Counted from the stretch's first letter, positions 1-43,798 are shown. The stretch: DNA of 52,682 nt from Candidatus Roizmanbacteria bacterium RIFCSPHIGHO2_02_FULL_37_13b (GCA_001789395.1 MFZK01000017.1:1-52682); one strand, 5' to 3'. Translations and numbers: made by a program. Notes: a model not told the origin generated them from the sequence alone.

Positions 1-1118
1 CGATTCGCTGCGGCCGTTATCTCAGGCCACCAGTAGGCTACAGAGTCTGGAAGCCAGGCCACTCCACTGTTGTTCGGGATCCCCCGGAAGGGAACCCGAC
101 TTATCAACTCCAGCTTGAAGTTCTGGGCGAAGATAACGATGTCTGTACCTGTCTCCATCGCCCAGATCGATACAGCGCAGAAGACAGCGGGGATGGCCGC
201 TGAGAGGAACACACTCAGCGCCCACTTGAACGCACCCCACCACCTTCGACGCCTCACTCTTGCATGGACCTGTCGTAGTAGACGTAGCGCTGTGATGACC
301 AGCTTTACGCTTACTTCAACCACCGTCTTCGCTGCCTCAACCACGAGACCGAAGTTGAAGATCGCGACGACGATTATCACGATCAGAGCCACGATGATGA
401 AGATCTCGAGCCAGTGTTGACCAGAACCAACCCAGCTTACCACTTGCCGCGACATGTTCGTAGCTTGGAGCGTAAAAGGATTGTACTCCTTATCCTCTGT
501 CCACTCTTCACTAGTCTCACAGCACAAGCAGTACGTTAGCTTACTTGTGTCGAAGTAGTTTTCGGGTTCTACTGACACACCATCTTTCATAATGACGAAA
601 TGGACGTGAGTCCACGCCGTCATCCCCGTAAGAGACACACGACCGATGACTGTGTTCTGATCTACCCTATCCCCTACTTGAGCCAGGGGACGACCATCCG
701 CCTTAGGGTACCGGATGATGTTGTTACCGACGATGGTGATCGGCGGAAGGTAGTCGGGTCGAGTTTCGTCCAGAAGATGTCCGTAGATGGTAACGATTCC
801 GTTACCATTGTTTACCCATACTTGACATCCTCTGTTTCCTGCGTTTTTGCAGTCAGATACGTCTACTACTCCGGATGCCATCGCCCTCACAGGTGCCCGA
901 TAAACAGCAGACAGATCGACTGCATACTCACCACCCCGACCGTGGTGATCTGCAGAGTTTGAACTTTCAATTCCCGATGCAACAGGAAGAAACCAACGAC
1001 CGTCTTTTGAAATCAGACGACCCTTGCTGAATCCTCCCTGCGCATATGAAGTTGTTGTGATGAAAAGGCACAGCCCGATGAGGAGCAGTGCCACGACACA
1101 GCGCCGCACTGTCTTCAT
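1..1118 (-). CDS. Secreted M23-family metallopeptidase with two downstream TM segments; 3' end runs off the window (at least 372 aa)
   Basis: Hand translation from ATG 1118 is open to base 3. It gives signal peptide MKTVRRCVVALLLIGLCLFITTTSYA and M23 motifs HHGRGGEYAVD, APVRAMASGVV, TIYGHL, VGDRVDQNTVIGRVSLTGMTAWTHVHF. Hydrophobic segments WLEIFIIVALIVIIVVAIFNFGLVV and WALSVFLSAAIPAVFCAVSIWAM follow. SD AAGGAG lies upstream. It is absent from the ORF track because there is no stop in the window. Confidence 0.85.
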   Translation of the reverse strand, partial: MKTVRRCVVALLLIGLCLFITTTSYAQGGFSKGRLISKDGRWFLPVASGIESSNSADHHGRGGEYAVDLSAVYRAPVRAMASGVVDVSDCKNAGNRGCQVWVNNGNGIVTIYGHLLDETRPDYLPPITIVGNNIIRYPKADGRPLAQVGDRVDQNTVIGRVSLTGMTAWTHVHFVIMKDGVSVEPENYFDTSKLTYCLCCETSEEWTEDKEYNPFTLQATNMSRQVVSWVGSGQHWLEIFIIVALIVIIVVAIFNFGLVVEAAKTVVEVSVKLVITALRLLRQVHARVRRRRWWGAFKWALSVFLSAAIPAVFCAVSIWAMETGTDIVIFAQNFKLELISRVPFRGIPNNSGVAWLPDSVAYWWPEITAAAN

Positions 1119-1399: not shown

Positions 1400-1556
1400 A
1401 GATCCTGAAACAAGTTCAGGATGACAGTTTCTCATCGTTTAGGATGATAGTTTATGGAGATTGCTTCGTCGTTATACTCCTCGTAATGACAAGAAATTGT
1501 CATCCCCGACTAGATCGGGGATCTATTAGATAGATTCCCGCCTTCGCGGGAATGAC
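1400..1556. repeat. Cluster of four REP-like palindromes (GAT-stem-loop-stem-ATGAC, i.e. TGTCAT-tagged)
   Basis: agatcctgaaacaagttcaggatgaca (1400-1426), gagattgcttcg...cgtaatgaca (1457-1491), tgtcatccccgactagatcggggatct (1498-1524, inverted), tagattcccgccttcgcgggaatgac (1531-1556). Confidence 0.8.
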
Positions 1557-1563
1557 CTTTATT

Positions 1564-2772
1564 ATGAAAAATAAAGAAAAAATACGATTAATAATTTTTT
1601 CATCTATTTATTTTTTGACAATCGCTATATTACTATCGACAAATTATTATTTCTTTAAATCATCCAATACATCGATAAAACAAATAAACACTTTATCTGC
1701 AAAAGAAATTGTTTTAAAAAAAGATTTAAATCATCTAACTACCAAATTTAGTGAAACTGAAAAAGCATTGATTGATCTGCAAAATCAAGACCAGCTGAAA
1801 ATTAACCAAAATCTTACGGAAGAAATTAAGAATATCAATACTACATATAATAGTAGTGTCAAGACTTATGAAAATTTGCTTGATCTTAAAAGCATTTCAA
1901 AAAAGACTGAAAACTTCGACAAAACCTTTGCTGAGATTTTATCTCTTCTCTCTGAAAAAAATTACATTAGTGCATCGGCTTTACTTGCTCAATTGGATAA
2001 AGACATAAAAACAGAATCAGATAAAATCTCGTCTTCATTTGTGATTCCGCAAAATGTGAAGGCAGTTGATGCTGCACCCGGTTCAGGATACAGTCAGCAA
2101 AAAGTGACAACTGACGTCGGCGATTTTTTAGTCGACGTCTTAGCAGCTGACCTAAATTCAACACGAGTCATGGTCGATACTGCATCAGATTCCACATGCG
2201 GAAATGACTGCCCGGTCCTTTCCCTATCCACCTTTATATCCCGTTCCGGTGGATTTGCAGGAATTAACGGTCCATATTTTTGTCCTGCCAGTTATCCAGC
2301 ATGCAGTGGCAAAAAAAATTCTTTTGATACTCTGTTAATGAACAAAAACAAAGTCTATTTTAATTCCGATAATAATATTTACTCAAATGTACCTGCAGTA
2401 ATCTTTACCGGAAATTCGGCCCGATTTGTCGGAGCTTCCTCCCAATGGGGCCGCGATACCGGTGTCGATGCTGTGATAGCATCACAACCAATGTTACTAT
2501 CAGGTGGGAATGTGACTTTTTCCGGTGATTCGGAAAGCAAAAGAGCTTCAAAAGGAAATAGAAGTTTCATCGGTAATAAAGGCAATACCGTTTATATTGG
2601 CGTCGTTCATAATGCTTCAGTTTATGACGTCGCTCAAGTTCTCAAAAAAATGGGATTGGAAAATGCTTTAAATTTAGACAGTGGTGGATCAACAGCTTTT
2701 TATACCAATGGTCATTTTGTCGCCGGACCGGGTCGCGATCTACCATTTGGCATCGTATTAGTCCACAAATAG
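1564..2772 (+). CDS. Membrane-anchored coiled-coil protein with C-terminal phosphodiester glycosidase (NAGPA-like) domain
   Basis: N-terminal TM, helical stalk, motifs GINGPYF, RSFIG, ALNLDSGGST. Start moved to ATG 1564 because ATG 1552 lies inside a palindrome. Confidence 0.75.
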   Translation: MKNKEKIRLIIFSSIYFLTIAILLSTNYYFFKSSNTSIKQINTLSAKEIVLKKDLNHLTTKFSETEKALIDLQNQDQLKINQNLTEEIKNINTTYNSSVKTYENLLDLKSISKKTENFDKTFAEILSLLSEKNYISASALLAQLDKDIKTESDKISSSFVIPQNVKAVDAAPGSGYSQQKVTTDVGDFLVDVLAADLNSTRVMVDTASDSTCGNDCPVLSLSTFISRSGGFAGINGPYFCPASYPACSGKKNSFDTLLMNKNKVYFNSDNNIYSNVPAVIFTGNSARFVGASSQWGRDTGVDAVIASQPMLLSGGNVTFSGDSESKRASKGNRSFIGNKGNTVYIGVVHNASVYDVAQVLKKMGLENALNLDSGGSTAFYTNGHFVAGPGRDLPFGIVLVHK

Positions 2773-2823: not shown

Positions 2824-3501
2824 TTATTTCCACCTGGATGCATGCTTTACCGTTTCTAAAGTCCTTTGATAATCCGCATGATTTTCAACGAAATCGCGAT
2901 AACTTTCTCTTTTATTATTAAATAGAGACATTACAGGATTAATATTGCATAATCTTTTTTCGCCAGCTATATATTCACGATAGGATGTCCAAGGATACTT
3001 ATTCAACGCAGATATATTATTTACTAACTTTGATGTATAAGGATTTAAATGAATATACCGTGATACGTGTTTTAGTTCTTCGTCATTATCAATCTGCTCT
3101 GATTTAAATTTAGTTAAAAAAATAGGTCCGAGTCCATCAGTTTCCAAATTAACATGTCGTGTAAACGAATTCATTACGAGACTGATGAAATGTGAAAGTC
3201 CCGAATCAATATTTTGCTTTAAAAGAAAATGATAATGCGTTGGCATTAAACAATAACTAAGTAACTCAACTCTAAAAAATTTCGCATCGCCAAGCTGAAT
3301 AATAATTCGATTACGATCAGATTCAGGTAAATCTAGAAAACGAGAAAAACTTAGACGAGCTTTCATTGATCGATAGTAGTGAATTATTTTAATAAAAAGA
3401 TGACAATTATGTATATCTAGGAATATCTTGTTCGAATGAATTGTTTTATTAAACACATGATAGATTCCATCGGTATATATTTTCTTTCTTCTTCCTGCCA
3501 T
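2824..3501 (-). mobile_element. REP-associated tyrosine transposase (RAYT; IS200-like Y1 HUH family)
   Basis: IYHVFNK, YCLMPTHYHFLL (HUH), RYIHLNP (catalytic Tyr), YPWTSY. Likely start ATG 3501 (the track uses 3516). Confidence 0.85.
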
Positions 3502-3584
3502 ATCTAAATTTTCCACAAAGTTACACTAAAGTCAAGATGAATATAAATAAATACAACGATTTAGTTTGTAATAACGCCAATTTC

Positions 3585-3600
3585 AACCTTGAAGGTTACG
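3585..3600. repeat. Right 16-bp inverted repeat of RAYT element (AACCTTGAAGGTTACG)
   Basis: Exact reverse complement of 2778-2793. Confidence 0.8.
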
Positions 3601-3642
3601 TAAATTATTATAGAGCCAAAAACAGGATTGTAATAAATTCAT

Positions 3643-3705
3643 TTGACAAAGTTTTTTTATTTTGTAGAATCTTTTTTGAACTATTATTGTGACACTAATA
3701 GTTCA
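3643..3705 (+). promoter_or_regulatory. Candidate promoter followed by a 10-bp inverted repeat (operator or hairpin)
   Basis: TTGACA 3643-3648, 16-nt spacer, TAGAAT 3665-3670; TGAACTATTA-N9-TAATAGTTCA at 3677-3705. A second TTGACA-N18-TACAAT lies at 3798-3827. Confidence 0.5.
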
Positions 3706-3890
3706 TAGTGAAATATGTTGATACATTACGATAACATAAATATCAAATTAGATAGATTTAGAATATGATAGCACCAGAAAGTTATAAAGATACTATCTTG
3801 ACAGGAAAAAAGCCTTATGTATACAATCACAACAGACGTTAAAAATGGATCGATTATCCTTTATATTAAGCGCAAGGATAAAATAAGCAG

Positions 3891-5849
3891 ATGAAAAATA
3901 AACAACTTCTAGCTAAACTTATTTCAATTTTTTTGAGTTTCAATTTAATTTCCTTCAATGCATTACCGACTTTAATCTTCGCCGCTGATATGCCAAATAG
4001 CGACACCTTAAAACAACAAATCATCGATAAAGCGTCTACTAAAACAGATACTATAAATGCTGATACATCAAAAGCGACGGGTGCAGTCCCTACTCAACCA
4101 CCAGCAACAAACAGCAATACTACAAATACTGGTGATAATGTCAATAACACCACATCAACTAACAATGATCAAACCACTCAAGTGAATAACACCACTGATA
4201 CAACTGTTAATCAAGATATAAATGCAGAAGCTAACACCGGTGATAATACCACTGATGGAAATATTTCGATCTATGGAACTGGAGCTGGCGTAATCGATTC
4301 AGGAGATGCGACTATTAATGCAACGGGAGTTGTCAAAGCCGGAAACAACGAGACAACTATAATTGGTTCCGGAAATGGCGGTTCAGCCGGCAGTAATGTC
4401 GTAAATACCGGAAATAGTCTAACCACGTCAACTAACGCGAATAACTCAACAACAACGATGGTTAATAGTGGAAATACTACAGTAATTAATCAAAATTCCA
4501 ACCTTTATGCCAACACTGGTGGAAACAGATCTAGAGGGAATATCGCCATCGGTGGTGGACCAGCTGGTGCCGTCTATACCGGAAATGCTACAGTTAATAG
4601 TAATTTCTTAGTGACTGCTAATGGCAATGTCACGCTTATTGGCGGAACAGGCGGAAATGGACCAGGAAACGGTGCATCAATAATTCTTGCCAATTCAGGC
4701 AATCGTGGATATTTTTTCACCAGAGCAAATACTACTCACTTTATCTTAGTGAACAATAGTAATCGCGCTCTCGTATCTCAAACCTGTGGATATCCTGTTG
4801 CTCCCACCACCAATATGGTCGATGCATCATCATGCGCAGCGATTACGGGAGGAAATAATTCTTCGGCCAATATCGCCTTCGGAGGCGACGCTGGAAGAAT
4901 CACTACCGGAAACGCTACCGTGAACGTCACCATGGTCGCTGATGTCAACAACAATTCAACAACTATAAATGGTGCTGGTTCAGGTAGTAGTGCGAATTCC
5001 GACGTCCTTAACACGGGAAATGATGTAAATATAGATACTACATCTAATAATACATCCAATACCACTGTCAATAATCGTAATTCTGCAACAATTAATCAAA
5101 GAGTCAATGCAAAAGCGATTACCGGTAAAAATATCGCCAATGGAAATATTTCATTTGGCGGTTGTGCAGGATGTATCACAACAGGTGATGCCACTGTCAA
5201 TGTCACCCTTGTTGCAGATGTAAACAATAACAAAACCTTAATTGACAATGGTAGTCTAAATGGTAACGTTGGTGGTTCAAATTCACAAGTCGTCAATACA
5301 GGAGATGATGTAAAAATATCAACTGAAACCAATAACAATACTCAAATTACATCAAACAGCACTAATTTCTTAGATCTTGCCCAAAATGTATTTGGACGTG
5401 TCATAACAGGTTTTGTCAAAGCAATTGGAAATATAGGCAGAAGCGCCGGAATAATTGTCACTGGTGATGCAGAACTAAATGTTAATCAAAAAGTCACCGG
5501 TAATAATAATGAAACAGTCATAATCGATCCTGTTCAAATTGGTGGTGCAGAAACCGCAAACCCAACGCCAACTCCTCAACAAGAAGTTGCGCGTGGTGGT
5601 ACAACGGATCCTGTTGTCACCAATAATTCGACAACGCCATCTAATCCATCACCAAGCAATTCATCGACCAATTCTACTATCTCCTCTTCTTCAGTAGGTA
5701 GCGTATCGGATGGAGACATATTAGGAGCAGCAACAGCAATCCTGCCTGCATCAGGTCCGGAACTATTACTTTGGATTTTGGCAATCGCGTTGTCATCATT
5801 AATATTAGGAAATTATTTAAGAAATTATAAAGCGGAGAAATCCAGCTAA
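3891..5849 (+). CDS. Secreted Asn/Thr/Gly repeat protein A (five ~95-105 aa repeats) with LPxSG-TM-basic tail
   Basis: Signal peptide; recurring N[TS]G...N.A...TG.N...GNI...TG[DN]A; S/T/P linker; C-terminus LPASG-hydrophobic helix-RNYKAEK. Confidence 0.8.
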   Translation: MKNKQLLAKLISIFLSFNLISFNALPTLIFAADMPNSDTLKQQIIDKASTKTDTINADTSKATGAVPTQPPATNSNTTNTGDNVNNTTSTNNDQTTQVNNTTDTTVNQDINAEANTGDNTTDGNISIYGTGAGVIDSGDATINATGVVKAGNNETTIIGSGNGGSAGSNVVNTGNSLTTSTNANNSTTTMVNSGNTTVINQNSNLYANTGGNRSRGNIAIGGGPAGAVYTGNATVNSNFLVTANGNVTLIGGTGGNGPGNGASIILANSGNRGYFFTRANTTHFILVNNSNRALVSQTCGYPVAPTTNMVDASSCAAITGGNNSSANIAFGGDAGRITTGNATVNVTMVADVNNNSTTINGAGSGSSANSDVLNTGNDVNIDTTSNNTSNTTVNNRNSATINQRVNAKAITGKNIANGNISFGGCAGCITTGDATVNVTLVADVNNNKTLIDNGSLNGNVGGSNSQVVNTGDDVKISTETNNNTQITSNSTNFLDLAQNVFGRVITGFVKAIGNIGRSAGIIVTGDAELNVNQKVTGNNNETVIIDPVQIGGAETANPTPTPQQEVARGGTTDPVVTNNSTTPSNPSPSNSSTNSTISSSSVGSVSDGDILGAATAILPASGPELLLWILAIALSSLILGNYLRNYKAEKSS

Positions 5850-5902
5850 CTTAGCTGTTAGAAATTATTAAGTTCTCGAACGGAAAGGGGGTGAAATATA
5901 AA

Positions 5903-7159
5903 ATGAGAAAAACAATTGCATCTTTAAGCTGCGCAGCGATTCTTTTATCAAACGCAGCAGGTGTTTTCGGTCAGACATATACTGATATCACCAATAGTGG
6001 ATCAGGTCTGGATGTAAAAAACACAACCAATACAACTACTGTTGTTACTATTGATCAAACCAATAGTGCCTTTGTCAAACAAGATTCAACCAATGTCGTA
6101 AAGACAGGTGATGTTGAAGTAAAAGGCAATATTGCAACTGGAACTGGATGTGGTACCTGTACCTTAGGTACAATAGGTGTCACAACCGGAGCCGGAACTG
6201 CAACGACAGTCCAAGAAGTTGATGTAAATAATAATACCGCCGCCGCAGAAGTAACAGGTGGCAGCGCTACATCTGTTCTTGGTTTAGTCAACACTGGAAA
6301 AGACGTCACTATTGATACTAGTGCCAATTCAACGACTGTTCTTACTGAACAACAAGCTAATAAAGCTTTTGTGTCTCAAAGTAGCATGAATCTTGTCGAT
6401 ACAGGAGGCGTCGTTGCCAGTAACAATATCGGCAATGTCGATGTAACCACTGGTCCAGGTACAGCAGTAACTGTACAAAAAATCAAGGCTAATGAAAATA
6501 CAGCTTTGGCAGTAGTTAAACCAGCCCCCACAACAGTTCTTCCACCTATGTGTGGATTAAATCCATGTGGTGCTGGCTTAGTCGGTGCTAATGGTGCTTA
6601 CACCATGATAACCAATACTGGTAATAAACTTATTGTCGACAATCACACAAACAATACCACCGTTTTAGGATTATTGCAAAGTAATTTGCTTTACTCCTCT
6701 CAAAAGGCTGGTAATTACGTCACAACAGGTGATGTCGTTGCTAAGAAAAATATTGGTGGTGTAGACATAACCACTGGTGCTGGTGTTGGATCAACCTTGA
6801 TGGAACTGGTTGCCAACAAAAACACTGCAGCCGCTTCAATCGGTTCAGATGAAATGCCTTTAGGAGGATCATTACTTCAACTTGTCAATACAGGTGTGAA
6901 TGCTAATGTTGATGCGAGCGCTAACGACACAACTGTTGTCGGTGGCAAACAAAACAACCTTTCATTCATATTTGAAAAGACCTGTAATTATGTCCAAACT
7001 GGTTTAGTTGGAGTTTTGAAGAATGTCGGCATGGTATCGACCCTTACTGGAGTAGGAGCTAGTGGAGTCGGTCAATCAACCACAGCTAATACCAATACGT
7101 TCTTGGTAACAAGTTCACCATTGGGATTACTTGGTTTATTGCTCGCTCTTACGCTTTAA
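5903..7159 (+). CDS. Secreted repeat protein B (four repeats of the same family)
   Basis: Strong SD AAAGGGGGTGA places the start at ATG 5903 (MRKTIASL). Signal peptide, N[TS]G / N.A.V.Q / TG.V / NIG / TTG.G motifs, CGTC, short hydrophobic C-terminus. Confidence 0.8.
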   Translation: MRKTIASLSCAAILLSNAAGVFGQTYTDITNSGSGLDVKNTTNTTTVVTIDQTNSAFVKQDSTNVVKTGDVEVKGNIATGTGCGTCTLGTIGVTTGAGTATTVQEVDVNNNTAAAEVTGGSATSVLGLVNTGKDVTIDTSANSTTVLTEQQANKAFVSQSSMNLVDTGGVVASNNIGNVDVTTGPGTAVTVQKIKANENTALAVVKPAPTTVLPPMCGLNPCGAGLVGANGAYTMITNTGNKLIVDNHTNNTTVLGLLQSNLLYSSQKAGNYVTTGDVVAKKNIGGVDITTGAGVGSTLMELVANKNTAAASIGSDEMPLGGSLLQLVNTGVNANVDASANDTTVVGGKQNNLSFIFEKTCNYVQTGLVGVLKNVGMVSTLTGVGASGVGQSTTANTNTFLVTSSPLGLLGLLLALTL

Positions 7160-7213
7160 TCTGATTTTTTGTGATCATTTTTTTTAGATCTAAAAAAAGA
7201 TTAAAGATAAGAG

Positions 7214-7256
7214 AAACAAAATACCCGCCACGTCAAACGTGGCGGGATTTTGTTTT
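7214..7256 (+). terminator. Rho-independent terminator after protein B
   Basis: Stem CCCGCCACGT-caa-ACGTGGCGGG (7224-7246) followed by ATTTTGTTTT. Confidence 0.85.
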
Positions 7257-7364
7257 AGAGCAGATTTCGCTTTAGCTTGTTGCAGTATGATGACCTTAAA
7301 TACAGTTTAAGCTTTAAAGACGTTCATATATCTATATTGATACCCTTTTTTACTCTTTTATAGG

Positions 7365-7393
7365 TTGCATTTAAAATTTATATAATTTATAAT
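7365..7393 (+). promoter_or_regulatory. Sigma70-like promoter for repeat protein C
   Basis: TTGCAT, 17-nt spacer, TATAAT. Confidence 0.6.
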
Positions 7394-7420
7394 ATCGCCA
7401 AGTTCTTTGGCTCTTAACAC

Positions 7421-9772
7421 ATGAATTCTATAGCTTTACGTATAATATTATCGGTTTTGATATGTTTTAATATAGTATTTTATCCTCTTTCAATATATTC
7501 ACAGGAAGTCGAACCAACACCAACTATAGATGAATCACCTACGCCTACGACGGTTGTTGAAAGTACGCCAACACCATTTTCAGAATTCGTTGACCTATCA
7601 CCTACTCCGGTTGATGAGATAACGCCAATAGTTGATATCACTCCGACCCCGACAATACCACTTGACGCTGATCTACAAATCGTCAATAGTGGCGATGATA
7701 CAAGCGTAAGTGCGACAGACAGCAGCAGTCTAACTGTAAATATAGAAAGCACCAATAGCGCTCAAGTAGATAATTCTGTGAATCATGACGTAAATACGGG
7801 TGATAACATTTCCGACAATCCTGTCTCAAACTCAGATGTCAAAACAGGCGAGGCTAAATCAGATGTTGTTATAGTTAATGAAGTCAATCAAGCTATAGTC
7901 GGAGGTGAAATCACTCCTGTTTTAGTCAATATCACAGAGGATCATCAAGGAGAGATAGATTTATCGATGATTCAACCATGTCTTGATAAATTATTCGGAT
8001 CAGAAGGTCAACAATCATATATCGTCAATACAGGTGACAATGTTGACATTCAAAATGATAAAAAGGAAACTACGGATACAACTATCACTGTAAATAACGA
8101 CGCGACAATTAATAATGATGTTAAGGTAAAGATCAACACCGGATCAAACGATGTCAACGGATTAAATGCTTCCCTTACTACAGGCGATGCTCAATCAAAT
8201 GTATTTATCTATAATGGAGCAAATACAACGCTTGTAGGTGATTGTAACATTTTTACAATAATCAATCTTTTTAAAGATCAAAATGGAAACATCATTCTTC
8301 CCTATGAACTTGGTATGACCGAGCTTGATTCCGGGTTGCCGGCTATATACTACAAATTAGATGTCACAAATTCCGGTGATAATCTTGATATAAATCAACA
8401 ATCATCAACTAATGATTCAACAACAATTGATACTCAAAACAATGCTGATGTCACAAGCAATGTCAATTCTGACGTCAATACCGGCGGTAATCAGATTTCA
8501 GGTATCTGGAATGGACTCATTTCGACGGGAAATGCCACTTCAACAGTCAAAATGGTTGATGCCATCAACACGACAATTGTCGGTGACCGATGGATGATGC
8601 TAAAAATTAATATTTTGGGTAATTGGTCGGGCAATATCATCGGCTTTGATGGCCCATATATTCGAGGTGAGAACTACATTATTCTTTTTTTCAGAATTCC
8701 TGCGAGTGATGGATCGGGCAACGCGCAATCAACTAATATCGTAAACAGTGGCGATAATTTATCGCTTGATCAAATAAATGAATATTCAAACACTCTTAAA
8801 GTCAATACAAATAATACCGCATCCGTGACAAACAATGTCGACGTCACCGCAAATAGCGGAAATAACCAAGTGTCAGGCATAAATACTTCGCTTAAAACAG
8901 GAGATGCCACCTCAAATATCAGCATTTTCAATTTCTTGAATACGACCATAATCGGCAATAATTGGTACTTTGCCATAATAAATATCTTTGATAACTTTGT
9001 TGGCGATATAATCTTTCCTCGTCCTGACCTTGCTATAGCAAAATTTGTTGATAAAACTACTGCCTTGAAAAATGATCAACTGACATATACGATCAAATAT
9101 GCTAATATAGGGCGATACTATGCCAATAAAACGGTTTTGACTGATGTATTACCTCAAGATGTAGAATTCGTCACATCTTTACCTGCTCCAACCATTAATG
9201 GAAATAACTTATCTTTTTCTTTAGGACGACTAAAACCAGGATCTGTCGGTGAAATTTCGATTCAGGTAAAAGTAAAAGATATTGATGCATCATTTGATTT
9301 GATAAACAATGCCATAATCAAGACTGATACACCGGAATCAGATAAATCAAATAATAGTTCATCTGCCGTGACTAAGATAAGTTTCGCACCACCGCAAATA
9401 CAAACAAATGACAATGCCAATAATAATAATTCAGGTAATTCTTCAAACCAAAATAATCAATCGACGTCTACACCATCTAGTCAATCTAGTACGACTAATA
9501 TCATTCCGACACCAACTGAGATGCCGGTAATTGATACAAAAATCCCGGCTCCTTTATCTTACATCCGTTATTTATCAAAAACTAAGGAAAATCCGGCAGA
9601 AATCAATCAAGGATCAATTTTGGCTATTTCGGATAAAAACAATTGCGGGTTTATGTGTATGTTACGCAGTCTATTTTATAAGTACTGGATAATACCTGTG
9701 TTGTCATTGCTTTTGGTACCTTTAATTAGAAAAAGATACAAACTTAAAAAAATTACCTCCCGAAAAACCTGA
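7421..9772 (+). CDS. Secreted repeat protein C: PT-rich linker, four repeats, DUF11-like Ig domain, C-terminal TM anchor
   Basis: Signal peptide, SPTPT linker, IVN[ST]GD / N.A / NTG.N / TG[DE]A repeats, DLAIAKFVDK...LTYTIKYANIG...LTDVLP (DUF11 pattern), terminal TM plus RKRYKLKK. Confidence 0.8.
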   Translation: MNSIALRIILSVLICFNIVFYPLSIYSQEVEPTPTIDESPTPTTVVESTPTPFSEFVDLSPTPVDEITPIVDITPTPTIPLDADLQIVNSGDDTSVSATDSSSLTVNIESTNSAQVDNSVNHDVNTGDNISDNPVSNSDVKTGEAKSDVVIVNEVNQAIVGGEITPVLVNITEDHQGEIDLSMIQPCLDKLFGSEGQQSYIVNTGDNVDIQNDKKETTDTTITVNNDATINNDVKVKINTGSNDVNGLNASLTTGDAQSNVFIYNGANTTLVGDCNIFTIINLFKDQNGNIILPYELGMTELDSGLPAIYYKLDVTNSGDNLDINQQSSTNDSTTIDTQNNADVTSNVNSDVNTGGNQISGIWNGLISTGNATSTVKMVDAINTTIVGDRWMMLKINILGNWSGNIIGFDGPYIRGENYIILFFRIPASDGSGNAQSTNIVNSGDNLSLDQINEYSNTLKVNTNNTASVTNNVDVTANSGNNQVSGINTSLKTGDATSNISIFNFLNTTIIGNNWYFAIINIFDNFVGDIIFPRPDLAIAKFVDKTTALKNDQLTYTIKYANIGRYYANKTVLTDVLPQDVEFVTSLPAPTINGNNLSFSLGRLKPGSVGEISIQVKVKDIDASFDLINNAIIKTDTPESDKSNNSSSAVTKISFAPPQIQTNDNANNNNSGNSSNQNNQSTSTPSSQSSTTNIIPTPTEMPVIDTKIPAPLSYIRYLSKTKENPAEINQGSILAISDKNNCGFMCMLRSLFYKYWIIPVLSLLLVPLIRKRYKLKKITSRKT

Positions 9773-10214
9773 ACTTTAACCGATTGAATATACTTTGAAT
9801 TTGATTGTGAATATAATCACTTAAACTCGTAGTCTTAATTTTGTCTATATATGAGATAGTATCTGTGTTTAAAACGATATTATTTTTTTTTGATTCGTCG
9901 GTTGCTTGGGTTTGCGTTGTATAATTTCCGTTCTTATATTCAACAGAGTATAACCCGGGCTTATCACTTTCAACAATTTTTTTTTGACCATTAACATCGA
10001 CTTCTATTCTTGTTTTGGTTGTACCTGATTCTTTTTTTTCAACTTTTCCATTATTTTCGATAGTTACACTCTGACTACTTTGAGAATTTACATTAGTTTG
10101 AACTTGTACCTGTCCACTGCCTTGCTGAGTTACTTTTGTCTCAATTTTATTTGTCGCAGTTTCTGAAACCAGAAACAGAGGTAATAAAAAAATTGGTGAT
10201 AGCTGCTTTTTCAT
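9753..10214 (-). CDS. Small exported Gln/Asn/Thr-rich hypothetical protein (153 aa)
   Basis: True start MKKQLSPIFLLPLFLV at 10214; the longer ORF call overlaps the tRNA. Confidence 0.65.
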   Translation of the reverse strand: MKKQLSPIFLLPLFLVSETATNKIETKVTQQGSGQVQVQTNVNSQSSQSVTIENNGKVEKKESGTTKTRIEVDVNGQKKIVESDKPGLYSVEYKNGNYTTQTQATDESKKNNIVLNTDTISYIDKIKTTSLSDYIHNQIQSIFNRLKFRFFGR

Positions 10215-10216
10215 AG

Positions 10217-10288
10217 TGGCCGCTGGAGGATTTGAACCTCCGACATCTGCAATGTGAATGCAGCGCTCTACCACTGAGCTAAACGGCC
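10217..10288 (-). tRNA. tRNA-Val(CAC), CCA not encoded
   Basis: GGCCGTT acceptor pairs with AGCGGCC-A; D-arm GCTC/GAGC; anticodon stem CTGCA-TTCACAT-TGCAG; T-arm GGAGG-TTCAAAT-CCTCC. Confidence 0.95.
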
Positions 10289-10292
10289 ATAC

Positions 10293-10342
10293 AGCACCCT
10301 TCCTGCCTGCAGGTGCAGGTCTTCTATTGAGCTACGGGTGCT
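10293..10342 (-). pseudogene. tRNA-like remnant (GCACCCGTAGCTCAATAG...) with internal CCTGC/GCAGG hairpin
   Basis: AGCACCC pairs with GGGTGCT; TAGCTCA D-arm start; no anticodon arm or T-arm. Confidence 0.5.
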
Positions 10343-10598
10343 CCGCTTTTAAAAAATAATTTTTTAATATTCTCCGCAAATAATTTCTTCCCCATTGAGT
10401 TTTAAAGAATTTTTCTCTTGATGTTGCATCTTGTTGATTTAAATACGCCTCATAATAAATGACTTTCCAAGGTATTTTATATTTTGTACTATCAACTTCT
10501 CTATGATTATGTTCTTGGAGTCTTCTTTTAAGATTGTCTGTATACCCTTTATAAAGACTCTTATCTTTTAAACTCTCTAAAACATAGGTATAATACAT
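10332..10598 (-). CDS. Small stand-alone GIY-YIG nuclease (YhbQ/UPF0213-like, 88 aa)
   Basis: MYYTYVL...LYKGYTDNLKRRLQEHN...YYEAY...ATSREKFFKT. Confidence 0.88.
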   Translation of the reverse strand: MYYTYVLESLKDKSLYKGYTDNLKRRLQEHNHREVDSTKYKIPWKVIYYEAYLNQQDATSREKFFKTQWGRNYLRRILKNYFLKAEHP

Positions 10599-10607
10599 AT
10601 TTAACAA

Positions 10608-10680
10608 CGCTCTTCACCCGCGCAAATTTCATATATACTGTATTGAAATTTGAACGGGTAAACCACTGAGCTACGGATCA
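10608..10680 (-). repeat. Copy 1 of a 66-bp direct repeat (10608-10673): tRNA 5' fragment TGATCCGTAGCTCAGTGGT-[48-nt hairpin]-AGAGCG
   Basis: 10608-10673 is identical to 10728-10793 (period 120 bp). Confidence 0.85.
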
Positions 10681-10727
10681 ATAACATTAATTATAACGAA
10701 CTAAACATCTAGTTAAACTCTACTTGC

Positions 10728-10853: not shown

Positions 10854-11462
10854 ATGGATCTTTTAAAAAAGGTTATCGAGTTTGTCATGGATATTCTGGA
10901 AACTGTGGTCTTTGTCGGCTCACTTTTCATCGTCAGCTACCTCTTTTTAATTGCTCCAAACCAGGTCAAAGGTGCTTCGATGGAACCAACTTTTGATTCG
11001 GGTGATTATATATTAACAAGCAAAATTTCTTATAAATTTTCTCATCCAAAAAAAGGAGATATTATCGTATTTGCATCCTTGAGAAATAAGGACATTGATT
11101 ATATAAAAAGAATTATTGGCATCCCGGGAGATAGAATAGTTATTAAAGATAATGAAGTTTACTTAAATGGCAATCTGATCAAAGAAGACTACATATCAGC
11201 AAAAACAACTATATTTGAAAGCGGTTTTATGAAGAATAACGTCGAGGTTACCGTACCGGAAGATTATTTATATGTCATGGGCGACAATCGACCTCGTTCC
11301 TCAGACTCAAGAGATTTTGGATTTATTCCAGCGACCAATGTCATTGGAAAAGTCATTTATCGCTATTTTCCTTTTAATAAATTGGGCGGAGTCAAAAACC
11401 CATTTCAAAGTATAATATTGCAGTATTTATTATCTGACAAACAAATCATTAATCTTTTTTAA
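10854..11462 (+). CDS. lepB: Signal peptidase I
   Basis: GASMEPT, YIKRIIGIPGD, MGDNRPRSSDSRDFG. Confidence 0.95.
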   Translation: MDLLKKVIEFVMDILETVVFVGSLFIVSYLFLIAPNQVKGASMEPTFDSGDYILTSKISYKFSHPKKGDIIVFASLRNKDIDYIKRIIGIPGDRIVIKDNEVYLNGNLIKEDYISAKTTIFESGFMKNNVEVTVPEDYLYVMGDNRPRSSDSRDFGFIPATNVIGKVIYRYFPFNKLGGVKNPFQSIILQYLLSDKQIINLF

Positions 11463-11972
11463 GACTTGAGTAGTCTTGTCTAAATTACCTCTTACCTGAA
11501 TGATTATTTTTGCTCTAACTCTTGTTTGGATAAATTCTATCTCCAAATATGGATCGACTTTTTTAAATAGATCGATAATATTTTGCCTAACTTCAGTTGA
11601 AAGTTTTTCTCCTTTGGGATCAATTTTGTAAATGTGTTGTCTTACTAAATCCTCAGTCTGCATCGTTGATAAATCATTCGTTAAAATTTTCTCATAAATA
11701 TGAATCAAAGTATTTTCGTTTTTGATTCTTGAGAGAATGATTAAATGTGTTATCGAAATAGTCTTTGATAAATAACCCTCGATAACAATATCGGGCAATC
11801 GTAGGACTCTTAGAAGTTGACAAATTTTCGATGGTGATTCTGAAAGAAGTCGACTTATATCGACTATTCGAAGACTTTTATCATTTTTCAATGCAAGTAT
11901 CAATGAAGCTTTTTCAAAAACATTATTTTCGTTTTTGATTTTATTGATAATTACCTCAACATCTTCATTCAT
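11430..11972 (-). CDS. ParB/Spo0J-like HTH protein lacking the N-terminal ParBc domain
   Basis: NVFEKA...ISRLLSESPSKICQLLRVLRLP...ISITH follows the Spo0J HTH region pattern. Confidence 0.6.
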   Translation of the reverse strand: MNEDVEVIINKIKNENNVFEKASLILALKNDKSLRIVDISRLLSESPSKICQLLRVLRLPDIVIEGYLSKTISITHLIILSRIKNENTLIHIYEKILTNDLSTMQTEDLVRQHIYKIDPKGEKLSTEVRQNIIDLFKKVDPYLEIEFIQTRVRAKIIIQVRGNLDKTTQVLKKINDLFVR

Positions 11973-27339: not shown

Positions 27340-28632
27340 TCAATCTGACAAGACTTGTCTTCGCATCTCTTTAATATTTTTAATTTTTGGGTAAACTTCA
27401 CGTTCAAACATCTGCATAACGATATCATTTTTATATTCACTCCTTCTTGATGCTGCATAAAAAGCCACCATTGTCTCTTCAGGTGTACCGACACACTCAA
27501 AGGGTTTAATTTTCTCAAGACCTAACAGTTCACGATAAATATGGATCAGATCAGTTTTGGCAAATAAATTTTCCTTAAATATTTTGATTAACTCATTTTT
27601 TGAAATAAAAGATGACATAAGTGTAAAAATAAAGCAACACTTGGCACATGATCCACACCATTTTTTCTTCCCAACATTTTTTTTAATTTGAAAATTGACG
27701 TTGCAGCTGGAAAAAAGCGGAAAATATTGTGGCCATTTCACAAATTGATGTATCACTTCGATTTCATAAAATGGCCTAAGTAATGAATAATAATTAATAT
27801 CACCCGTTACAAATTTATTTATATAGTCGTGAAATAAACGTTCAAATTCTTCTGACTTGCTCCACTGATGATTAATTTCAGATCCAAGATACTCAACATT
27901 GCCGAAGCTTGCGCTTTTTTCATTTGACATGACTATTTCGTTAAATCCATACATGTATGCCACGATGATCGCCACAAATGAATAAATTGCCGTAATGGGA
28001 ATGTGGCCGTTGTATACACCTTTATGTTCGTTTAATACAAAGAGTTTTGGATCTAATTCTCTCATAACTATAATATTATTAACATTCAGGAGTTTGATTA
28101 AATCTTGCTGCAAGCGCGTCGTATTAAGAGTAAATGTCTCAAAGGGAATATTTTTTTCTTTCAGTATTTGGGCTGTGACAATAGAGTCTTTACCACCGCC
28201 AAATGGCACCAAGGCTTTCTGTGAAACTATTAGTTTTACAGATTCAACACCCGACGTTGAATTATGATACGGAAAATTCACCAACCCATGAAAGTCAATC
28301 TTATTTTTATAGAAAAACTCTCCTAATCCTTTTGTATAGACCGTATTCCAAAACTTGGCTTGGTCGCTGGTCAATGAATAGCCATTTATCTTTATCTCCT
28401 TTGGGCAGTATAGTTTATAGTAGCTTATACCTAACATGAGAAGTAAATTTTGAAGAATGTTATCTAATGAATTTTCAATCACCAATCTATTCTGACTTGC
28501 TATACGAAGTTTTTCGACAAACTCTTCACTCTTGCCATCGTCAAATAATATTTTGTAATAAAACTCGAATTTACCCTCATTGAGATAAGCCTTATAACCT
28601 ACAAATTCAAAAACCGTAGCTTTGGTTCTCAT
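27340..28632 (-). CDS. murL: UDP-MurNAc-L-Ala-L-Glu epimerase MurL
   Basis: GISYYK, GLGEF, GGGKDS, NGHIP, SNEKSA, NHQWSKS, SSCN, WCGSCAKC, KPFECVG. Confidence 0.8.
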   Translation of the reverse strand: MRTKATVFEFVGYKAYLNEGKFEFYYKILFDDGKSEEFVEKLRIASQNRLVIENSLDNILQNLLLMLGISYYKLYCPKEIKINGYSLTSDQAKFWNTVYTKGLGEFFYKNKIDFHGLVNFPYHNSTSGVESVKLIVSQKALVPFGGGKDSIVTAQILKEKNIPFETFTLNTTRLQQDLIKLLNVNNIIVMRELDPKLFVLNEHKGVYNGHIPITAIYSFVAIIVAYMYGFNEIVMSNEKSASFGNVEYLGSEINHQWSKSEEFERLFHDYINKFVTGDINYYSLLRPFYEIEVIHQFVKWPQYFPLFSSCNVNFQIKKNVGKKKWCGSCAKCCFIFTLMSSFISKNELIKIFKENLFAKTDLIHIYRELLGLEKIKPFECVGTPEETMVAFYAASRRSEYKNDIVMQMFEREVYPKIKNIKEMRRQVLSD

Positions 28633-31078: not shown

Positions 31079-32179
31079 CTAGCCGATAAAATATCCTTGA
31101 ATAAACAATGACAACATGATGACTTGTAAACAAAAAAATAAGACGGCGATAATTATTTTAATTGATCGATTTTTCAGTTCTCCCAAATAAAAAAAAATCG
31201 ACAGCGACATGACCGCATATCGAGGAATGGATGAAAAAGTACCGGTCAGTGTAGGCAATATCAAATTGACTAAAGAGAATATATTAAGTAGTGTTAGCTC
31301 TATGTTCGTTTTGTACCTTTTTTTAAAATCCAAAATCAATATAAAGAATACGAAGTTAAATATAAAAAACTCAATTAACGCTGTAAAATAGGCATTATCT
31401 TTATTTGCAGTGATAAAAATTTTTAGATAACGATAATAAACTTGAGGTAGAAAAATCAAACTTGTACTACGATGAGCGCCAAAAATGGGTTGTGAATTTA
31501 AAAAGAAAAGTGGATCCTGAACTGTCAGAAAAAGATATATCATATAAATAATAAGTCCAAAAATGGGAAAAATAATAAGCCAAACAATAGATGATTGTTT
31601 TTTCTTGAATGGCAAATAGAATATCAGAGTAAATAAACCTATTAATCTCGTTAAAACGCAAAAAAATGAAAAAATGGCGCTAATCCAATATTTCTTCTTC
31701 AGATGCAGATAAATTACCAATAAAAAAAGCAATAAAAAGAAACTTTCTGTATAAACAGTAGAAAAGTAAAAACTCGAAGGAAAAAGAAATAACAATAAAA
31801 TAAACCATGGAACATTTTGGTATTTGAGAAGATGAAGTAGCTTATACATTACTATACAAGCTAAAAGAAATGATAAATTAGAAATCAAAAGCCCGGAAAT
31901 AAGATAATTTTTGCCTACAAATATAGCAACGACTCTAATAATAATTGGGTAAAGTGGAAAGAAAGCCTGTTGATATTGATAATACCCGCTCTGGGCAATA
32001 CTTATATAATGCAACCCATCGAAATTAGCAAACGCCTTGATAAATATAGGCAAATTATAGACATTGAGCAATTCTTTGTAAGGAAAAAAACCTTTATAGG
32101 GTAATAAAAAACCCGCTATATAGGCAATTGAGAAAATAAAGAACAACCGGATAAAATAAATACTTAATACCTTTTTCAT
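31079..32179 (-). CDS. GT-C membrane mannosyltransferase (PIG-V-like)
   Basis: NFDGLHYISIA..GY, AFFPLYP, YTESFF, TRLIG, SIPRY; multi-TM. Confidence 0.75.
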   Translation of the reverse strand: MKKVLSIYFIRLFFIFSIAYIAGFLLPYKGFFPYKELLNVYNLPIFIKAFANFDGLHYISIAQSGYYQYQQAFFPLYPIIIRVVAIFVGKNYLISGLLISNLSFLLACIVMYKLLHLLKYQNVPWFILLLFLFPSSFYFSTVYTESFFLLLFLLVIYLHLKKKYWISAIFSFFCVLTRLIGLFTLIFYLPFKKKQSSIVWLIIFPIFGLIIYMIYLFLTVQDPLFFLNSQPIFGAHRSTSLIFLPQVYYRYLKIFITANKDNAYFTALIEFFIFNFVFFILILDFKKRYKTNIELTLLNIFSLVNLILPTLTGTFSSIPRYAVMSLSIFFYLGELKNRSIKIIIAVLFFCLQVIMLSLFIQGYFIG

Positions 32180-42376: not shown

Positions 42377-43798
42377 ATGTTTCTTAACGATATTACTGGA
42401 TCTTGCGTTAAATTCATCATATGCAGCAGCATATTCCTTTTTTTAGCCCTTGGTACTACTTTTGCACAACAAAATACACAGCTGTTTTCACCTAAAGTTC
42501 TTCTCGTAAATCTTGATCCGCAAGAAAACGGCAAATCGATGATGAGTGAATTCTGGAGCCATCTTTTTCCGGGTAAAACCCCCGATGAGGCTGCGGCTGA
42601 AGCTGCTTCCTCAAATATTGATGCTTTTAAAAGACTATCTAAAGACTCCATTAACTATCAAGTTGTAAAAAAAATAAAGATTACTACTTTTCCTAAATAT
42701 TTAAATGGTTTCAATTATTCATTTGCCAAATATAGGGAATGGCAATGTGCAGGTCCTGATCCAACAGGAAATTGTGAAAAGCAAAAATGGCAAATAGATT
42801 ATACGAGCTTAATAAAAGATAATAATATATGTTCCATAGCATTAGAAAATAATGTCGATGAAATATGGATCTCTAGTCCATCATATACTCTTGCCTATGA
42901 AAGTTTAATGATTGGACCCAAGTCGGGTTTTTGGGTCAATGGACCGTTTTATAAGATCGACGGTTGTAACAAAAATTACATGGTAGTAACTTCTGAATTC
43001 GGCCCACATCCCTTTACCCATGTTTATGCTCACAGGATCGAATCAACAATGATTTTTATGACCGAGAATTGGAACACTTCAGACAGACAAAAATACTGGG
43101 AAAATTTCTCTATCGTCTGCCAACTACCTATGGGAACCAATACAACACCCTGTACGATGACGTATTGTGGCTATGGACATATTCCTTCAAATGCACAAAG
43201 TCAATATGACTACAGCAATAAAAGTTATAAAAAATCAAGCTGTATCGATTGGAAAAATTTTCCTAACTTTACCGGACAAACAGAGAATCTTAATTGCGAC
43301 AAATGGAATTGCACAGACACAGATCCGAATGGGTGGGAAGAATTTTGGTTTGGCAGTTTGCCTCGGAGTGACGGTGAAATAGACATGATCAGCCGTTATA
43401 GCACTACTTTTAAAATGAAAAAAAATTGGTGGTATTATTTACTTTATCCAGAAAATGCTATACAATTCAGGCAAGCACAGCTATCCGTGCCTACGCCAAT
43501 ACCGTCAGGCATTCCAACAATTTCCCGTCCCACGCTAACCAATATCCCACCTGTCAATACTCAAATACCAGATGTACCGACTCCAACAATTATTAACAAT
43601 AACTGTCTTAGTAAAAAAAATGGTGATGCAGACTGCAATAACAGCATAAATTTAGCAGATTTTAACATTTGGCGAAGCGAATATAACTCTTCTACAAATC
43701 AACAAAATCCATTACTTAATAAAAGTGATTTCAACACAGATGGAAATATAAATTTATCTGATTTTAATCTCTGGAGAAGCAATTATTTTAAGTCATGA
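42377..43798 (+). CDS. Secreted Cys-rich protein with HxxxH metal site, PT linker and C-terminal dockerin-like domain
   Basis: Signal peptide; HVYAHRIES; GDADCNNSINLADF...SDFNTDGNINLSDF (two Ca-binding loops). Confidence 0.7.
   Translation: MFLNDITGSCVKFIICSSIFLFLALGTTFAQQNTQLFSPKVLLVNLDPQENGKSMMSEFWSHLFPGKTPDEAAAEAASSNIDAFKRLSKDSINYQVVKKIKITTFPKYLNGFNYSFAKYREWQCAGPDPTGNCEKQKWQIDYTSLIKDNNICSIALENNVDEIWISSPSYTLAYESLMIGPKSGFWVNGPFYKIDGCNKNYMVVTSEFGPHPFTHVYAHRIESTMIFMTENWNTSDRQKYWENFSIVCQLPMGTNTTPCTMTYCGYGHIPSNAQSQYDYSNKSYKKSSCIDWKNFPNFTGQTENLNCDKWNCTDTDPNGWEEFWFGSLPRSDGEIDMISRYSTTFKMKKNWWYYLLYPENAIQFRQAQLSVPTPIPSGIPTISRPTLTNIPPVNTQIPDVPTPTIINNNCLSKKNGDADCNNSINLADFNIWRSEYNSSTNQQNPLLNKSDFNTDGNINLSDFNLWRSNYFKS

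Follow-up and report, generated by a model that had tools for sequence, protein, structure and literature searches.

Three neighbouring genes on the + strand of an uncultured, ultra-small, Roizmanbacteria-like CPR bacterium encode paralogous proteins, A, B and C, which share one type of Asn/Thr/Gly repeat in 5, 4 and 4 copies, respectively. They differ in their anchoring signals, are conserved as a cassette and belong to a family with 1199 cluster representatives (profile search with the repeat, E<=1e-10) that is absent from Pfam, NCBIfam and PDB. The same trio is found in related genomes and therefore points to an undescribed cell-surface assembly. The best explanation, which we hold at slightly below even odds (about 45%), is that each repeat forms a wide solenoid rung and that A, B and C are the wall-anchored, unanchored and membrane-anchored members of a lineage-specific (Microgenomates/CPR) surface cassette that assembles via stacking of these rungs. 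The parallel in-register geometry of the rungs, deduced from indirect signs, how the proteins stack on one another and what the product does are what we infer in this explanation. The relevant features lie as follows in the window, that is, the whole 52.7-kb stretch of DNA analysed (46 ORFs).

3798-3827, + strand: promoter-like site upstream of A (TTGACA-18-TACAAT, 11/12 matches)
3891-5849, + strand: gene A, 652 aa; signal peptide, conserved N-terminal segment, five repeats, Pro/Ser/Thr linker, LPASG sorting signal
4110-4388, 4389-4676, 4677-4994, 4995-5279 and 5280-5564, + strand: A repeats 1-5 (five HMM matches, alignment)
5742-5846, + strand: putative C-terminal sorting signal of A; LPASG (5742-5756), hydrophobic stretch, basic tail
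5881-5892, + strand: Shine-Dalgarno-like GGAAAGGGGGTG ahead of the ATG of B at 5903, read directly from the sequence
5891-7159, + strand: gene B, GTG start, 422 aa; signal peptide, four repeats, amphipathic uncharged C-terminal tail
5978-6274, 6275-6598, 6599-6871 and 6872-7132, + strand: B repeats 1-4 (HMM matches, alignment)
7115-7156, + strand: C-terminal tail of B, SPLGLLGLLLALTL, predicted helix
7224-7246, + strand: intrinsic-terminator-like hairpin 3' of B; 10-bp stem with 8 G-C pairs, T run
7357-7386, + strand: promoter-like site upstream of C (10/12 matches)
7421-9772, + strand: gene C, 783 aa; signal peptide, Pro/Thr-rich stretch, four longer repeats, DUF11, low-complexity linker, TM helix, basic tail
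7502-7669, + strand: Pro/Thr-rich stretch of C (residues 28-83)
7670-8011, 8012-8353, 8354-8728 and 8729-9022, + strand: C repeats 1-4 (alignment, AF2)
9026-9367, + strand: Ig-like DUF11 domain of C (PF01345, residues 536-649)
9650-9769, + strand: predicted membrane anchor and basic tail of C
9753-10214, - strand: small secreted ORF, possible accessory gene, 153 aa from MKKQLSP, convergent with C

The 13 repeat units (A, five in residues 74-558; B, four in 30-414; C, four in 84-534) can be aligned with one another; a unit has about 95-115 aa (range 87-125 aa) and the consensus VNTG..N.TT..N.A.V.Q..V.TG.N...GNI..TG.AT.NV..N.NTT. Homology was assessed by running an HMM built from the units of one protein against the repeat regions of the other proteins, with 500 composition-preserving shuffles per comparison. 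Cross-protein scores were 8.8-50.6 bits, shuffles gave at most -0.3 bits, and 0 of 500 shuffles reached the real score in each of the six comparisons, so the similarity is far above what composition produces. The ORFs, the alignment and the shuffles thus bear out the original prediction of three paralogous secreted genes at 3891-9772 with 5, 4 and 4 repeats. Each of the 4-5 units is separately conserved among orthologues, and Asn, Gln, Gly and Thr are conserved at the same position of every repeat. No unit-sized tandem repeat is found at the DNA level, and the repeats are therefore old. The statement that this is not a characterised family also stands, since the repeat has no sequence match in Pfam, NCBIfam or PDB. 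In particular, A and B match no Pfam family at E<=1, Curlin_rpt included, neither the 32 B-type nor the 14 A-type proteins searched have a Pfam family in common at E<=10, and every relative with a name is a "hypothetical protein" of Roizmanbacteria or Microgenomates.

The prediction that A, B and C have three different anchoring modes is mirrored by the C-terminal classes of 160 repeat proteins: 27 end in an LPxTG-like motif, a TM segment and a basic tail (median 639 aa), 46 in an uncharged hydrophobic tail (median 401.5 aa; four repeats in 43 of the 46) and 27 in a TM segment and basic tail without LPxTG (median 907 aa), with 60 in other or no class. In A, the LPASG motif (residues 618-622) is followed by the hydrophobic stretch and basic tail that had been described (PELLLWILAIALSSLILGNYLRNYKAEKSS). 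Its orthologues are 36-49% identical over their full length, and 12 of 13 that were aligned have LPxTG at the corresponding position, where A of the window has Ser for Thr. Among the anchor models, PF00746 matches 4/14 A-type proteins (best E 0.0015) and TIGR01167 matches 3/14 (best E 0.0039), with neither matching A of the window. No sortase gene is present among the 46 ORFs of the window or within 10 kb in 14 related loci (182 ORFs); one report describes sortase as near ubiquitous in Microgenomates (PMC6744442). The LPASG motif, the missing anchor-model match and the lack of a neighbouring sortase gene count against the preferred reading, as does the presence of an LPxTG-like motif in only 8 of 13 complete A genes from the window and loci, with 5 lacking it.

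B is more than the "repeats only" protein first described, since a signal peptide precedes its repeats and its hydrophobic C-terminal tail is conserved; B-type tails are mostly 14-17 aa (n=74 proteins), with K/R in 3/74. B has neither a recognisable anchor nor a sorting signal and, unless a partner held it, would come off the cell. Based on the B-type alignment and the AF2 model, B is predicted to have no N-terminal cap once its signal peptide is cleaved. The ATG at 5903 (418 aa) is more likely to be its true start, because GGAAAGGGGGTG precedes this ATG and the database and Atlas forms begin there. The terminator expected 3' of B is present at 7224-7246. The promoter-like sites of the region, taken as a set, show no excess (33 vs 27.2 +/- 5.6 in shuffles), so those upstream of A and C are weak evidence.

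For C, the predicted DUF11 domain (61.1 bits vs a gathering cut-off of 24.6; E 1.5e-16) and TM anchor (C-terminal AF2 helix, residues 744-781) were found, but the Pro/Thr stretch proposed as its stalk is N-terminal and does not adjoin the anchor. All 43 PDB matches of C in Foldseek at E<=0.001 are ~140-column alignments to Ig-like stalk domains (probability 1.00), including integrin, CLIPPER of fibrillar adhesins and Gram-positive pilins. Each C repeat contains an extra hydrophobic strand (..INIF..GNIILP). The CxxC motifs of A (425/428) and B (87/90) do lie in the same loop after GNI, as had been noticed, but Cys in this loop is sporadic (6/32 B-type proteins, 2/13 A-type orthologues); in A-types, the Cys pair that hardly varies is 299/315.

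Conservation of the gene cluster, a check named beforehand, was examined in the related-locus set (14 loci, 10 kb around the cassette). The order A-B is kept in all 12 loci with downstream DNA and A-B-C, strand included, in 9, whereas the flanking genes differ and are unrelated from locus to locus; scattered single genes are thus not the pattern seen. Recognisable C is absent from the other 3 loci, which counts against the preferred reading. DUF11 is present in 26/43 longer family members. A somewhat unlikely but serious alternative is that A, B and C are independent, capped monomeric surface proteins (adhesins or wall proteins), neighbours only through tandem duplication, each displayed by its own means and with no mutual assembly. 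This would fit the greater similarity of units within a protein type (hhalign A-A 98-175, B-B 92-137, C-C 92-161) than between types (A-C 45-73, B-C 36-79), the DUF11 stalks typical of monomeric fibrillar adhesins and the fixed repeat number of the uncharged-tail class, as expected for a defined monomer. In addition, the C-terminal helix of B (H406-417, AF2 pLDDT 58-70) and the conserved N-terminal segment of A could be caps that prevent stacking. Nevertheless, simple duplicates are expected to scatter, so the retention of order and strand despite changing flanks (9 to 12 of the 12 loci) counts against mere duplication, and so does the anchorless B.

The stacking assembly that we prefer draws on the predicted fold. 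AF2 models of B and C are all-beta, and their strand pattern recurs from repeat to repeat; strands are 31-32 residues long, and B repeats each have a return strand of 19-21 residues as well. From an input of only 32 sequences, the best AF2 model of B reached pLDDT 78.4 and pTM 0.65, with the remaining four of five poor (64, 60, 50, 49), and the ESM Atlas model reached pTM 0.71, as would suit a single rigid body better than a string of beads. For C, pTM was 0.63, the repeats were mostly at pLDDT 80-94 and the five models were similar (mean pLDDT 63-68). The models have no significant fold match in the PDB outside DUF11, and B has 0 Foldseek matches at E<=0.001 (TM about 0.05). Its nearest matches, all non-significant, are all parallel beta-solenoids, led by CsgA (8c50, E 0.023) and FapC (9u4u, E 0.084) and followed by an ice-binding protein, Ag43, RTX, pectate lyases and TPS domains. 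Covariation over 544 repeat units reveals an intra-unit ladder (i+j about 103-105, positions 24-48 vs 57-79) at mostly conserved inward positions, with values of 0.3-0.43 within the unit and only 0.04-0.21 between neighbouring units (control 0.02-0.10); a continuous meander is disfavoured by so weak an X(n)-Y(n+1) ladder. The in-register diagonal between units is strong (median 1.47 vs background 95th percentile 0.89), although it is confounded by subfamily features shared among the repeats of one protein. Together, AF2 secondary structure, the nearest Foldseek matches and covariation favour the beta-solenoid-like fold proposed originally.

The original proposal, taken strictly, is a curli/Fap-like functional amyloid, with B as an unlimited SDS-resistant cross-beta polymer and A and C as anchored nucleators. 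Like curli and Fap, the cassette encodes secreted repeats that are imperfect and rich in N/Q/G, with inward Asn and Gln conserved, and a free subunit beside homologous cell-bound paralogues; the strong Shine-Dalgarno sequence and own terminator of B, its predicted lack of an N-terminal cap, and CsgA and FapC as the two best matches of its model agree with this too. However, those matches have probabilities of 0.01-0.04 and TM of 0.04-0.07, and no kinship with curli can be detected: in hhalign, A1 and A2 align to E. coli CsgA with a probability of 0.2%, and Curlin_rpt is not matched. The repeat of curli and Fap has ~20-35 aa and a curlin rung about 20-23 residues (strand-turn-strand), as opposed to ~95-115 aa and 31-32-residue strands here, the individually conserved units resemble a defined fold and B may be capped at its C terminus. 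Moreover, anchoring here would be by sortase signal and TM helix in a probable monoderm, and, as had been stated, CsgG/E/F or FapF-type genes are lacking, none being detected by Pfam in the 46 window ORFs or the 182 ORFs of the 14 loci. We therefore consider a strict amyloid improbable.

Least probable of all is that modelling has been misled into a solenoid by low-complexity repeats and that the real fold consists of separate beta-sandwich or long-hairpin domains in a rod or 2D S-layer-like lattice. In its favour, the models of B are uneven, the covariation ladder equally fits an H-bonded long hairpin, the ESM Atlas neighbours of B include beta-barrels as well as solenoids (all TM<=0.32) and some members of the phylum are reported to have S-layers (PMC13293708). 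Against it, two predictors give B a pTM of 0.65-0.71, all five models of C are confident over the repeats, the Asn/Gln/Gly/Thr positions fit ladders and the inter-unit ladder is close to control.

Under the preferred solenoid-stacking reading, A, B and C would be exported by Sec via their signal peptides, and each repeat would be one very wide two-layer rung in which a 31-residue strand is followed by a small hairpin at the tip and then by the return strand, with inward residues that are small (Ala/Val) or at the conserved Asn/Gln/Thr/Gly ladder positions. A would contribute five rungs, which sortase would link to peptidoglycan via the LPxTG-like signal, and C four rungs set on a membrane-anchored, Ig-like DUF11 stalk. 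B, with four rungs but anchorless, and with the best ribosome-binding site and a terminator of its own, would be the free and probably most abundant subunit, held on the cell by edge stacking of rung on rung onto A, C or itself. The product may be a short surface fibre or strut with a role in envelope structure or attachment. A bolder form, which we regard as unlikely, is a previously unseen cross-beta assembly with rungs of ~95 residues, in which B is stacked between A and C as a wall-nucleated open-ended fibre or an A-B-C strut. If true, such a strut would tie the membrane to peptidoglycan, and the assembly would arise in ultra-small monoderm CPR bacteria without a dedicated secretion channel.

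Several known surface systems resemble parts of the cassette. As in Gram-positive LPXTG proteins and pili, A-types end in an LPxTG-like motif, hydrophobic stretch and basic tail, some of them matching PF00746 and TIGR01167, and stalk domains of the pilins BcpA, CppA and PilA resemble DUF11 of C. In contrast, known MSCRAMM, Cna_B and pilin domains have no relation to the passenger repeat, the cassette is not accompanied by a sortase gene, and sortase polymerisation of B is not expected because B has no sorting signal. The Pam pili of CPR, with homologues reported in Microgenomatia, are described as CPR-specific, Sec-exported, operon-encoded surface filaments with several paralogous subunits, a membrane-anchored terminator and no envelope-spanning machine (Troman et al. 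2026 preprint, PMC13278184), a plan that the cassette shares in its export, operon-like encoding, paralogous subunits, lack of an envelope-spanning machine and lineage. However, Pam pilins combine a nine-strand beta-sandwich with a truncated Ig-like domain and use donor-strand exchange and PapD-like membrane chaperones (PMC13278184), whereas, compared by description, the proteins here have 4-5 homologous long-strand repeats and no two-domain plan, and no chaperone-like family is encoded near the cassette in the window and related loci. Toastrack/DUF4097, described as a beta-helix fold (PMC11237479), is the nearest ESM Atlas structural neighbour of the C repeats (TM 0.19 by query, 0.28-0.38 by target), in line with the solenoid reading, but it is described as intracellular while A, B and C are secreted, and Pfam detects it neither in these three nor in any of the 32 B-type proteins. 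Finally, homologues of the 153-aa ORF lie directly 3' of the cassette in three related loci (L002, L009 and L010; E 4e-10 to 6e-9).

Three adjacent paralogous genes for secreted repeat proteins, here called A, B and C, form an undescribed, lineage-wide three-gene surface system whose repeat domain has no match among solved structures. Their chromosomal setting is unremarkable, the window also carrying the dcw cluster, L21/L27, IleRS and signal peptidase I. Asn, Thr and Gly are abundant in all three products, each of which begins with a signal-peptide-like N terminus.

3891..5849, same strand as B and C: gene A, ORF of 652 aa
5891..7159, same strand as A and C: gene B, 422 aa counted from GTG
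7421..9772, same strand as A and B: gene C, ORF of 783 aa

The true start of B is probably the ATG at 5903, since it has the stretch GGAAAGGGGGTG just upstream and is also where the protein starts in the database and in the ESM Atlas. B is followed by a strong terminator-like hairpin (7224-7246; 10-bp stem with 8 G-C pairs), and promoter-like hexamers stand upstream of A and of C, the region's promoter-like sites as a set being not above shuffles. The hairpin and the hexamers suggest, at the level of sequence, that A and B share one transcript and that C has its own. An Rfam scan of 3400-10700 returned tRNA-Val as its sole match.

The original prediction of three related repeat genes is borne out. 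The 13 repeat units (five in A, four each in B and C), about 95-115 aa long, align with invariant Asn and Gly positions and follow the consensus VNTG..N.TT..N.A.V.Q..V.TG.N...GNI..TG.AT.NV..N.NTT. A Hidden Markov Model (HMM) built from the units of one protein scored 8.8-50.6 bits against the repeat regions of the other two, whereas residue shuffles reached at most -0.3 bits and 0/500 equalled the real score in each of the six comparisons. Similarity between units is higher inside one protein type than across types, and TRF found no tandem repeats of unit size at the DNA level. Several details of the earlier description need amending: B had been called repeats only, and its repeats are indeed there, but it also carries a signal peptide and, at its C terminus, a conserved tail; the Pro/Thr stretch described in C is present and lies at the N terminus; and the CxxC shared by A and B does occupy the same loop in both, being sporadic among relatives (6/32 B-types and 2/13 A-type orthologues). 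Separately, a near-invariant Cys pair in A (residues 299/315; 4785-4835) brackets an insert of 12-16 residues in the third A-type repeat, and another pair in B (residues 221/226) lies in a poorly modelled loop between repeats 2 and 3. Judged by sequence, both pairs are likely disulfide loops; a thiol-disulfide oxidoreductase family is listed as enriched in CPR in a protein family survey (PMC6744442).

Pfam and NCBIfam have no match for the repeat in A, B or C, and among relatives searched at E ≤ 10 no weak repeat match was common to the 32 B-types or to the 14 A-types (relatives of B and A, respectively). Likewise, neither B itself nor the profiles of the units and of the B-types found a sequence match in the PDB (best 3c5p, E 0.39). 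The family is nevertheless large: against 1.84 billion cluster representatives, the 13-unit profile matched 2540 proteins at E ≤ 1e-3, the weakest tier, which may be inflated by composition, 1199 at E ≤ 1e-10 and 130 at E ≤ 1e-30. Relatives with source-given names are always "hypothetical protein" from Roizmanbacteria or Microgenomates, none of 59 close relatives of A carries a precomputed Pfam domain, and the ESM Atlas neighbours are unnamed Woesebacteria and Gottesmanbacteria clusters. No earlier description of the repeat family was found in the literature. CPR/Patescibacteria make up a big part of bacterial diversity and live attached to other cells, and to our knowledge little of their surface proteome is named. 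Even the plainest reading of the trio gives annotation pipelines a new repeat domain and three architectures to name.

These architectures differ chiefly in how the protein is attached to the cell. When the C termini of 160 repeat proteins were classed, 27 had an LPxTG-like motif, a transmembrane (TM) segment and a basic tail (median 639 aa; 17/27 with five repeats), 46 had a hydrophobic tail that is short and uncharged (median 401.5 aa; 43/46 with four repeats), 27 had a TM segment and basic tail without LPxTG (median 907 aa), and 60, fragments among them, fell outside all three classes. DUF11 occurs in 26 of 43 scanned matches (39 longer proteins and 4 B-sized), accompanied in some of these 26 by DUF7507 or fn3. 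A-type orthologues have full-length identities of 36-49%, with all five repeats individually conserved and an LPxTG in 12/13 at the site of LPASG in A of the window; the anchor models PF00746 and TIGR01167 match 4/14 and 3/14 A-types, and the window's A matches neither. The B-type tail, mostly 14-17 residues long (7115-7156 in the window), is conserved and rich in L, G, S, M, F and W, with D/E in 36/74 tails, and appears as a low-confidence helix in the AF2 model. It may serve for capping, for anchoring at the membrane surface or for docking. A sorting signal of the PEP-CTERM/PGF-CTERM type was rejected for this tail because the basic cluster is absent (K/R in 3/74).

To assess conservation of the cassette, i.e. 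A-B-C in order, GTDB genomes were scanned once with a 6-sequence A-type alignment, giving 14 related loci (given L numbers below), all Patescibacteria-type MAGs by gene content. Two of these stop inside A, and order was counted in the remaining 12: a B-type gene lies 3' of A on the same strand in 12/12, and a C-type gene then follows in 9/12, with DUF11 in 8 of these 9. The cassette is the sole feature common to all 15 regions, with flanks that vary between loci, and the gene-cluster conservation named as a check in the original prediction is therefore found. No sortase, chaperone or channel gene occurs among 182 other ORFs within 10 kb at the related loci or among the window's 46 scanned ORFs; sortase is near ubiquitous in Microgenomates, according to the family survey (PMC6744442). 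Seven of the 14 related contigs (L003, L004, L005, L006, L008, L009 and L013) are titled "uncultured Gammaproteobacteria", apparently a placeholder of the depositor, whereas in cassette and neighbours they match Roizmanbacteria/Microgenomates loci.

The fold of the repeat was approached by structure prediction and covariation. The best AF2 model of B, made with 32 B-type sequences, has a mean pLDDT of 78.4 and a pTM of 0.65 (the other four models: 64, 60, 50 and 49), and the ESMFold model of B in the Atlas has a pTM of 0.71. In the AF2 model, every repeat consists of a short strand, a strand of 31-32 residues, a small hairpin at the GNI..TG.A tip and a return strand of 19-21 residues that passes into the first strand of the repeat after it. 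The AF2 model of C (pTM 0.63; repeats mostly at pLDDT 80-94; similar mean pLDDT of 63-68 in all five models) keeps this plan but adds one hydrophobic strand to each unit; behind the repeats come DUF11, then a disordered linker and finally a TM helix. Foldseek of the B model against the PDB gave no match at E ≤ 0.001 (TM about 0.05); the nearest, non-significant matches are all parallel β-solenoids, CsgA (8c50, E 0.023) first and FapC (9u4u, E 0.084) next. For C, the 43 matches at E ≤ 0.001 are all confined to the Ig-like DUF11, and its repeats have, as structural neighbours in the Atlas at low TM, DUF4097/Toast_rack proteins, whose fold has been described as a right-handed β-helix (PMC11237479).

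Covariation across 544 distinct units reveals an antiparallel ladder (i+j about 103-105, positions 24-48 vs 57-79), chiefly at conserved inward Ala/Val/Asn/Gln positions. When neighbouring units are paired, the ladder proves to lie within the unit (0.3-0.43), and coupling of the return strand to the next long strand is weak (0.04-0.21, control 0.02-0.10). The in-register inter-unit diagonal stands out, its median of 1.47 exceeding both the values at offsets of one (0.20 and 0.14) and the 95th percentile of the background (0.89), a signal that is confounded by subfamily features common to all repeats of one protein and is by itself no proof of contacts. From the models and the covariation together we infer that each repeat would form one wide β-arch rung, stacked in register, with four rungs in B, five in A and four in C. 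An outer-membrane-type β-barrel was rejected, as aromatic girdles are absent, Ala/Val/Asn/Gln point inward and the lineage is monoderm.

The cassette is akin to anchored surface β-solenoid or fibre systems already known, with Gram-positive-type anchoring and a new passenger domain. The recently described Pam pili of CPR are set apart by a two-domain structure from which the cassette architecture differs (PMC13278184). A "Roizmanbacteria homologue" that a language model identified in the same preprint may belong to the cassette family, although the two-domain structure described there speaks against it (PMC13278184).

What is kept together across genomes is a set of three exported paralogues: A with a sortase-type signal, B anchorless and C with an Ig stalk and TM segment. 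B, we infer, would have no means of its own of staying on the cell and would be held by its open end rungs stacking on A, C or other B molecules. The product would be a surface fibre or a membrane-to-wall strut, serving envelope structure or attachment to a host cell. Surface layers and filaments have been seen by cryo-EM on CPR cells. If the trio does assemble by rung stacking, this would be a new way for a monoderm to build a surface fibre or envelope strut, the β-solenoid geometry would be new as well, and its members would be candidates for such layers and filaments on CPR cells.

A, B and C could instead be independent capped adhesins, a reading to be set beside the possible capping role of the B tail on one side and the joint retention of the three genes on the other. 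Another alternative, put forward in the original prediction, is a true open-ended amyloid, with B polymerising and A and C as anchored nucleators or adhesins; the observation of that prediction stands, and its interpretation does so in part. Curli and Fap are indeed closest in outline, combining a free subunit with cell-bound paralogues and Asn/Gln-rich rungs, but the cassette proteins differ from curlins in sequence, rung size and export genes, and hhalign against E. coli CsgA found no relation. Finally, the solenoid might be a modelling artefact masking a different β architecture, for which the uneven confidence of the five B models speaks, while the pTM values of B from two predictors and the confident C repeats speak against it; the covariation ladder would suit a long hairpin equally well.

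Several features surround the cassette. A small secreted ORF at 9753-10214 (-), 153 aa from MKKQLSP, converges with C, the end of which it overlaps by 20 nt; a longer 5' extension of the mechanical ORF runs into tRNA-Val. Homologues of it stand immediately after the cassette in L002, L009 and L010, and it may be a fourth, facultative component. Further downstream, signal peptidase I is followed by a ParB-HTH gene in the window (10854-11972) and in L002, L004 and L010 (3/12 loci with downstream DNA), which may be mere shared synteny of the closest relatives. Five ORFs of 127-473 aa in or beside the dcw and glycosyltransferase regions of the window (27340-28632, 31079-32179, 42377-43798, 43849-44331 and 50993-51376) have no Pfam match at E ≤ 1e-5. 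Directly upstream of A, an ORF at 2824-3516 (-) weakly matches IS200-like Y1 transposase (PF01797, E 1.9e-5, 25.2 bits, cut-off 23); before it come an NAGPA-like phosphodiester glycosidase at 1552-2772 (+), which has a hydrophobic stretch near its N terminus, and at 3-1118 (-) an M23 peptidase whose long C-terminal half is hydrophobic. The first 2 kb of the window has a G+C of 0.428, and the remainder about 0.32-0.40. Upstream of the cassette in L001 (74-2785), L004 (3246-8070) and L010 (1-3210) lies a group of secreted proteins, including camelysin/TasA-like Peptidase_M73, lamin-tail-domain and RTX-repeat proteins, that could be another surface-fibre system.
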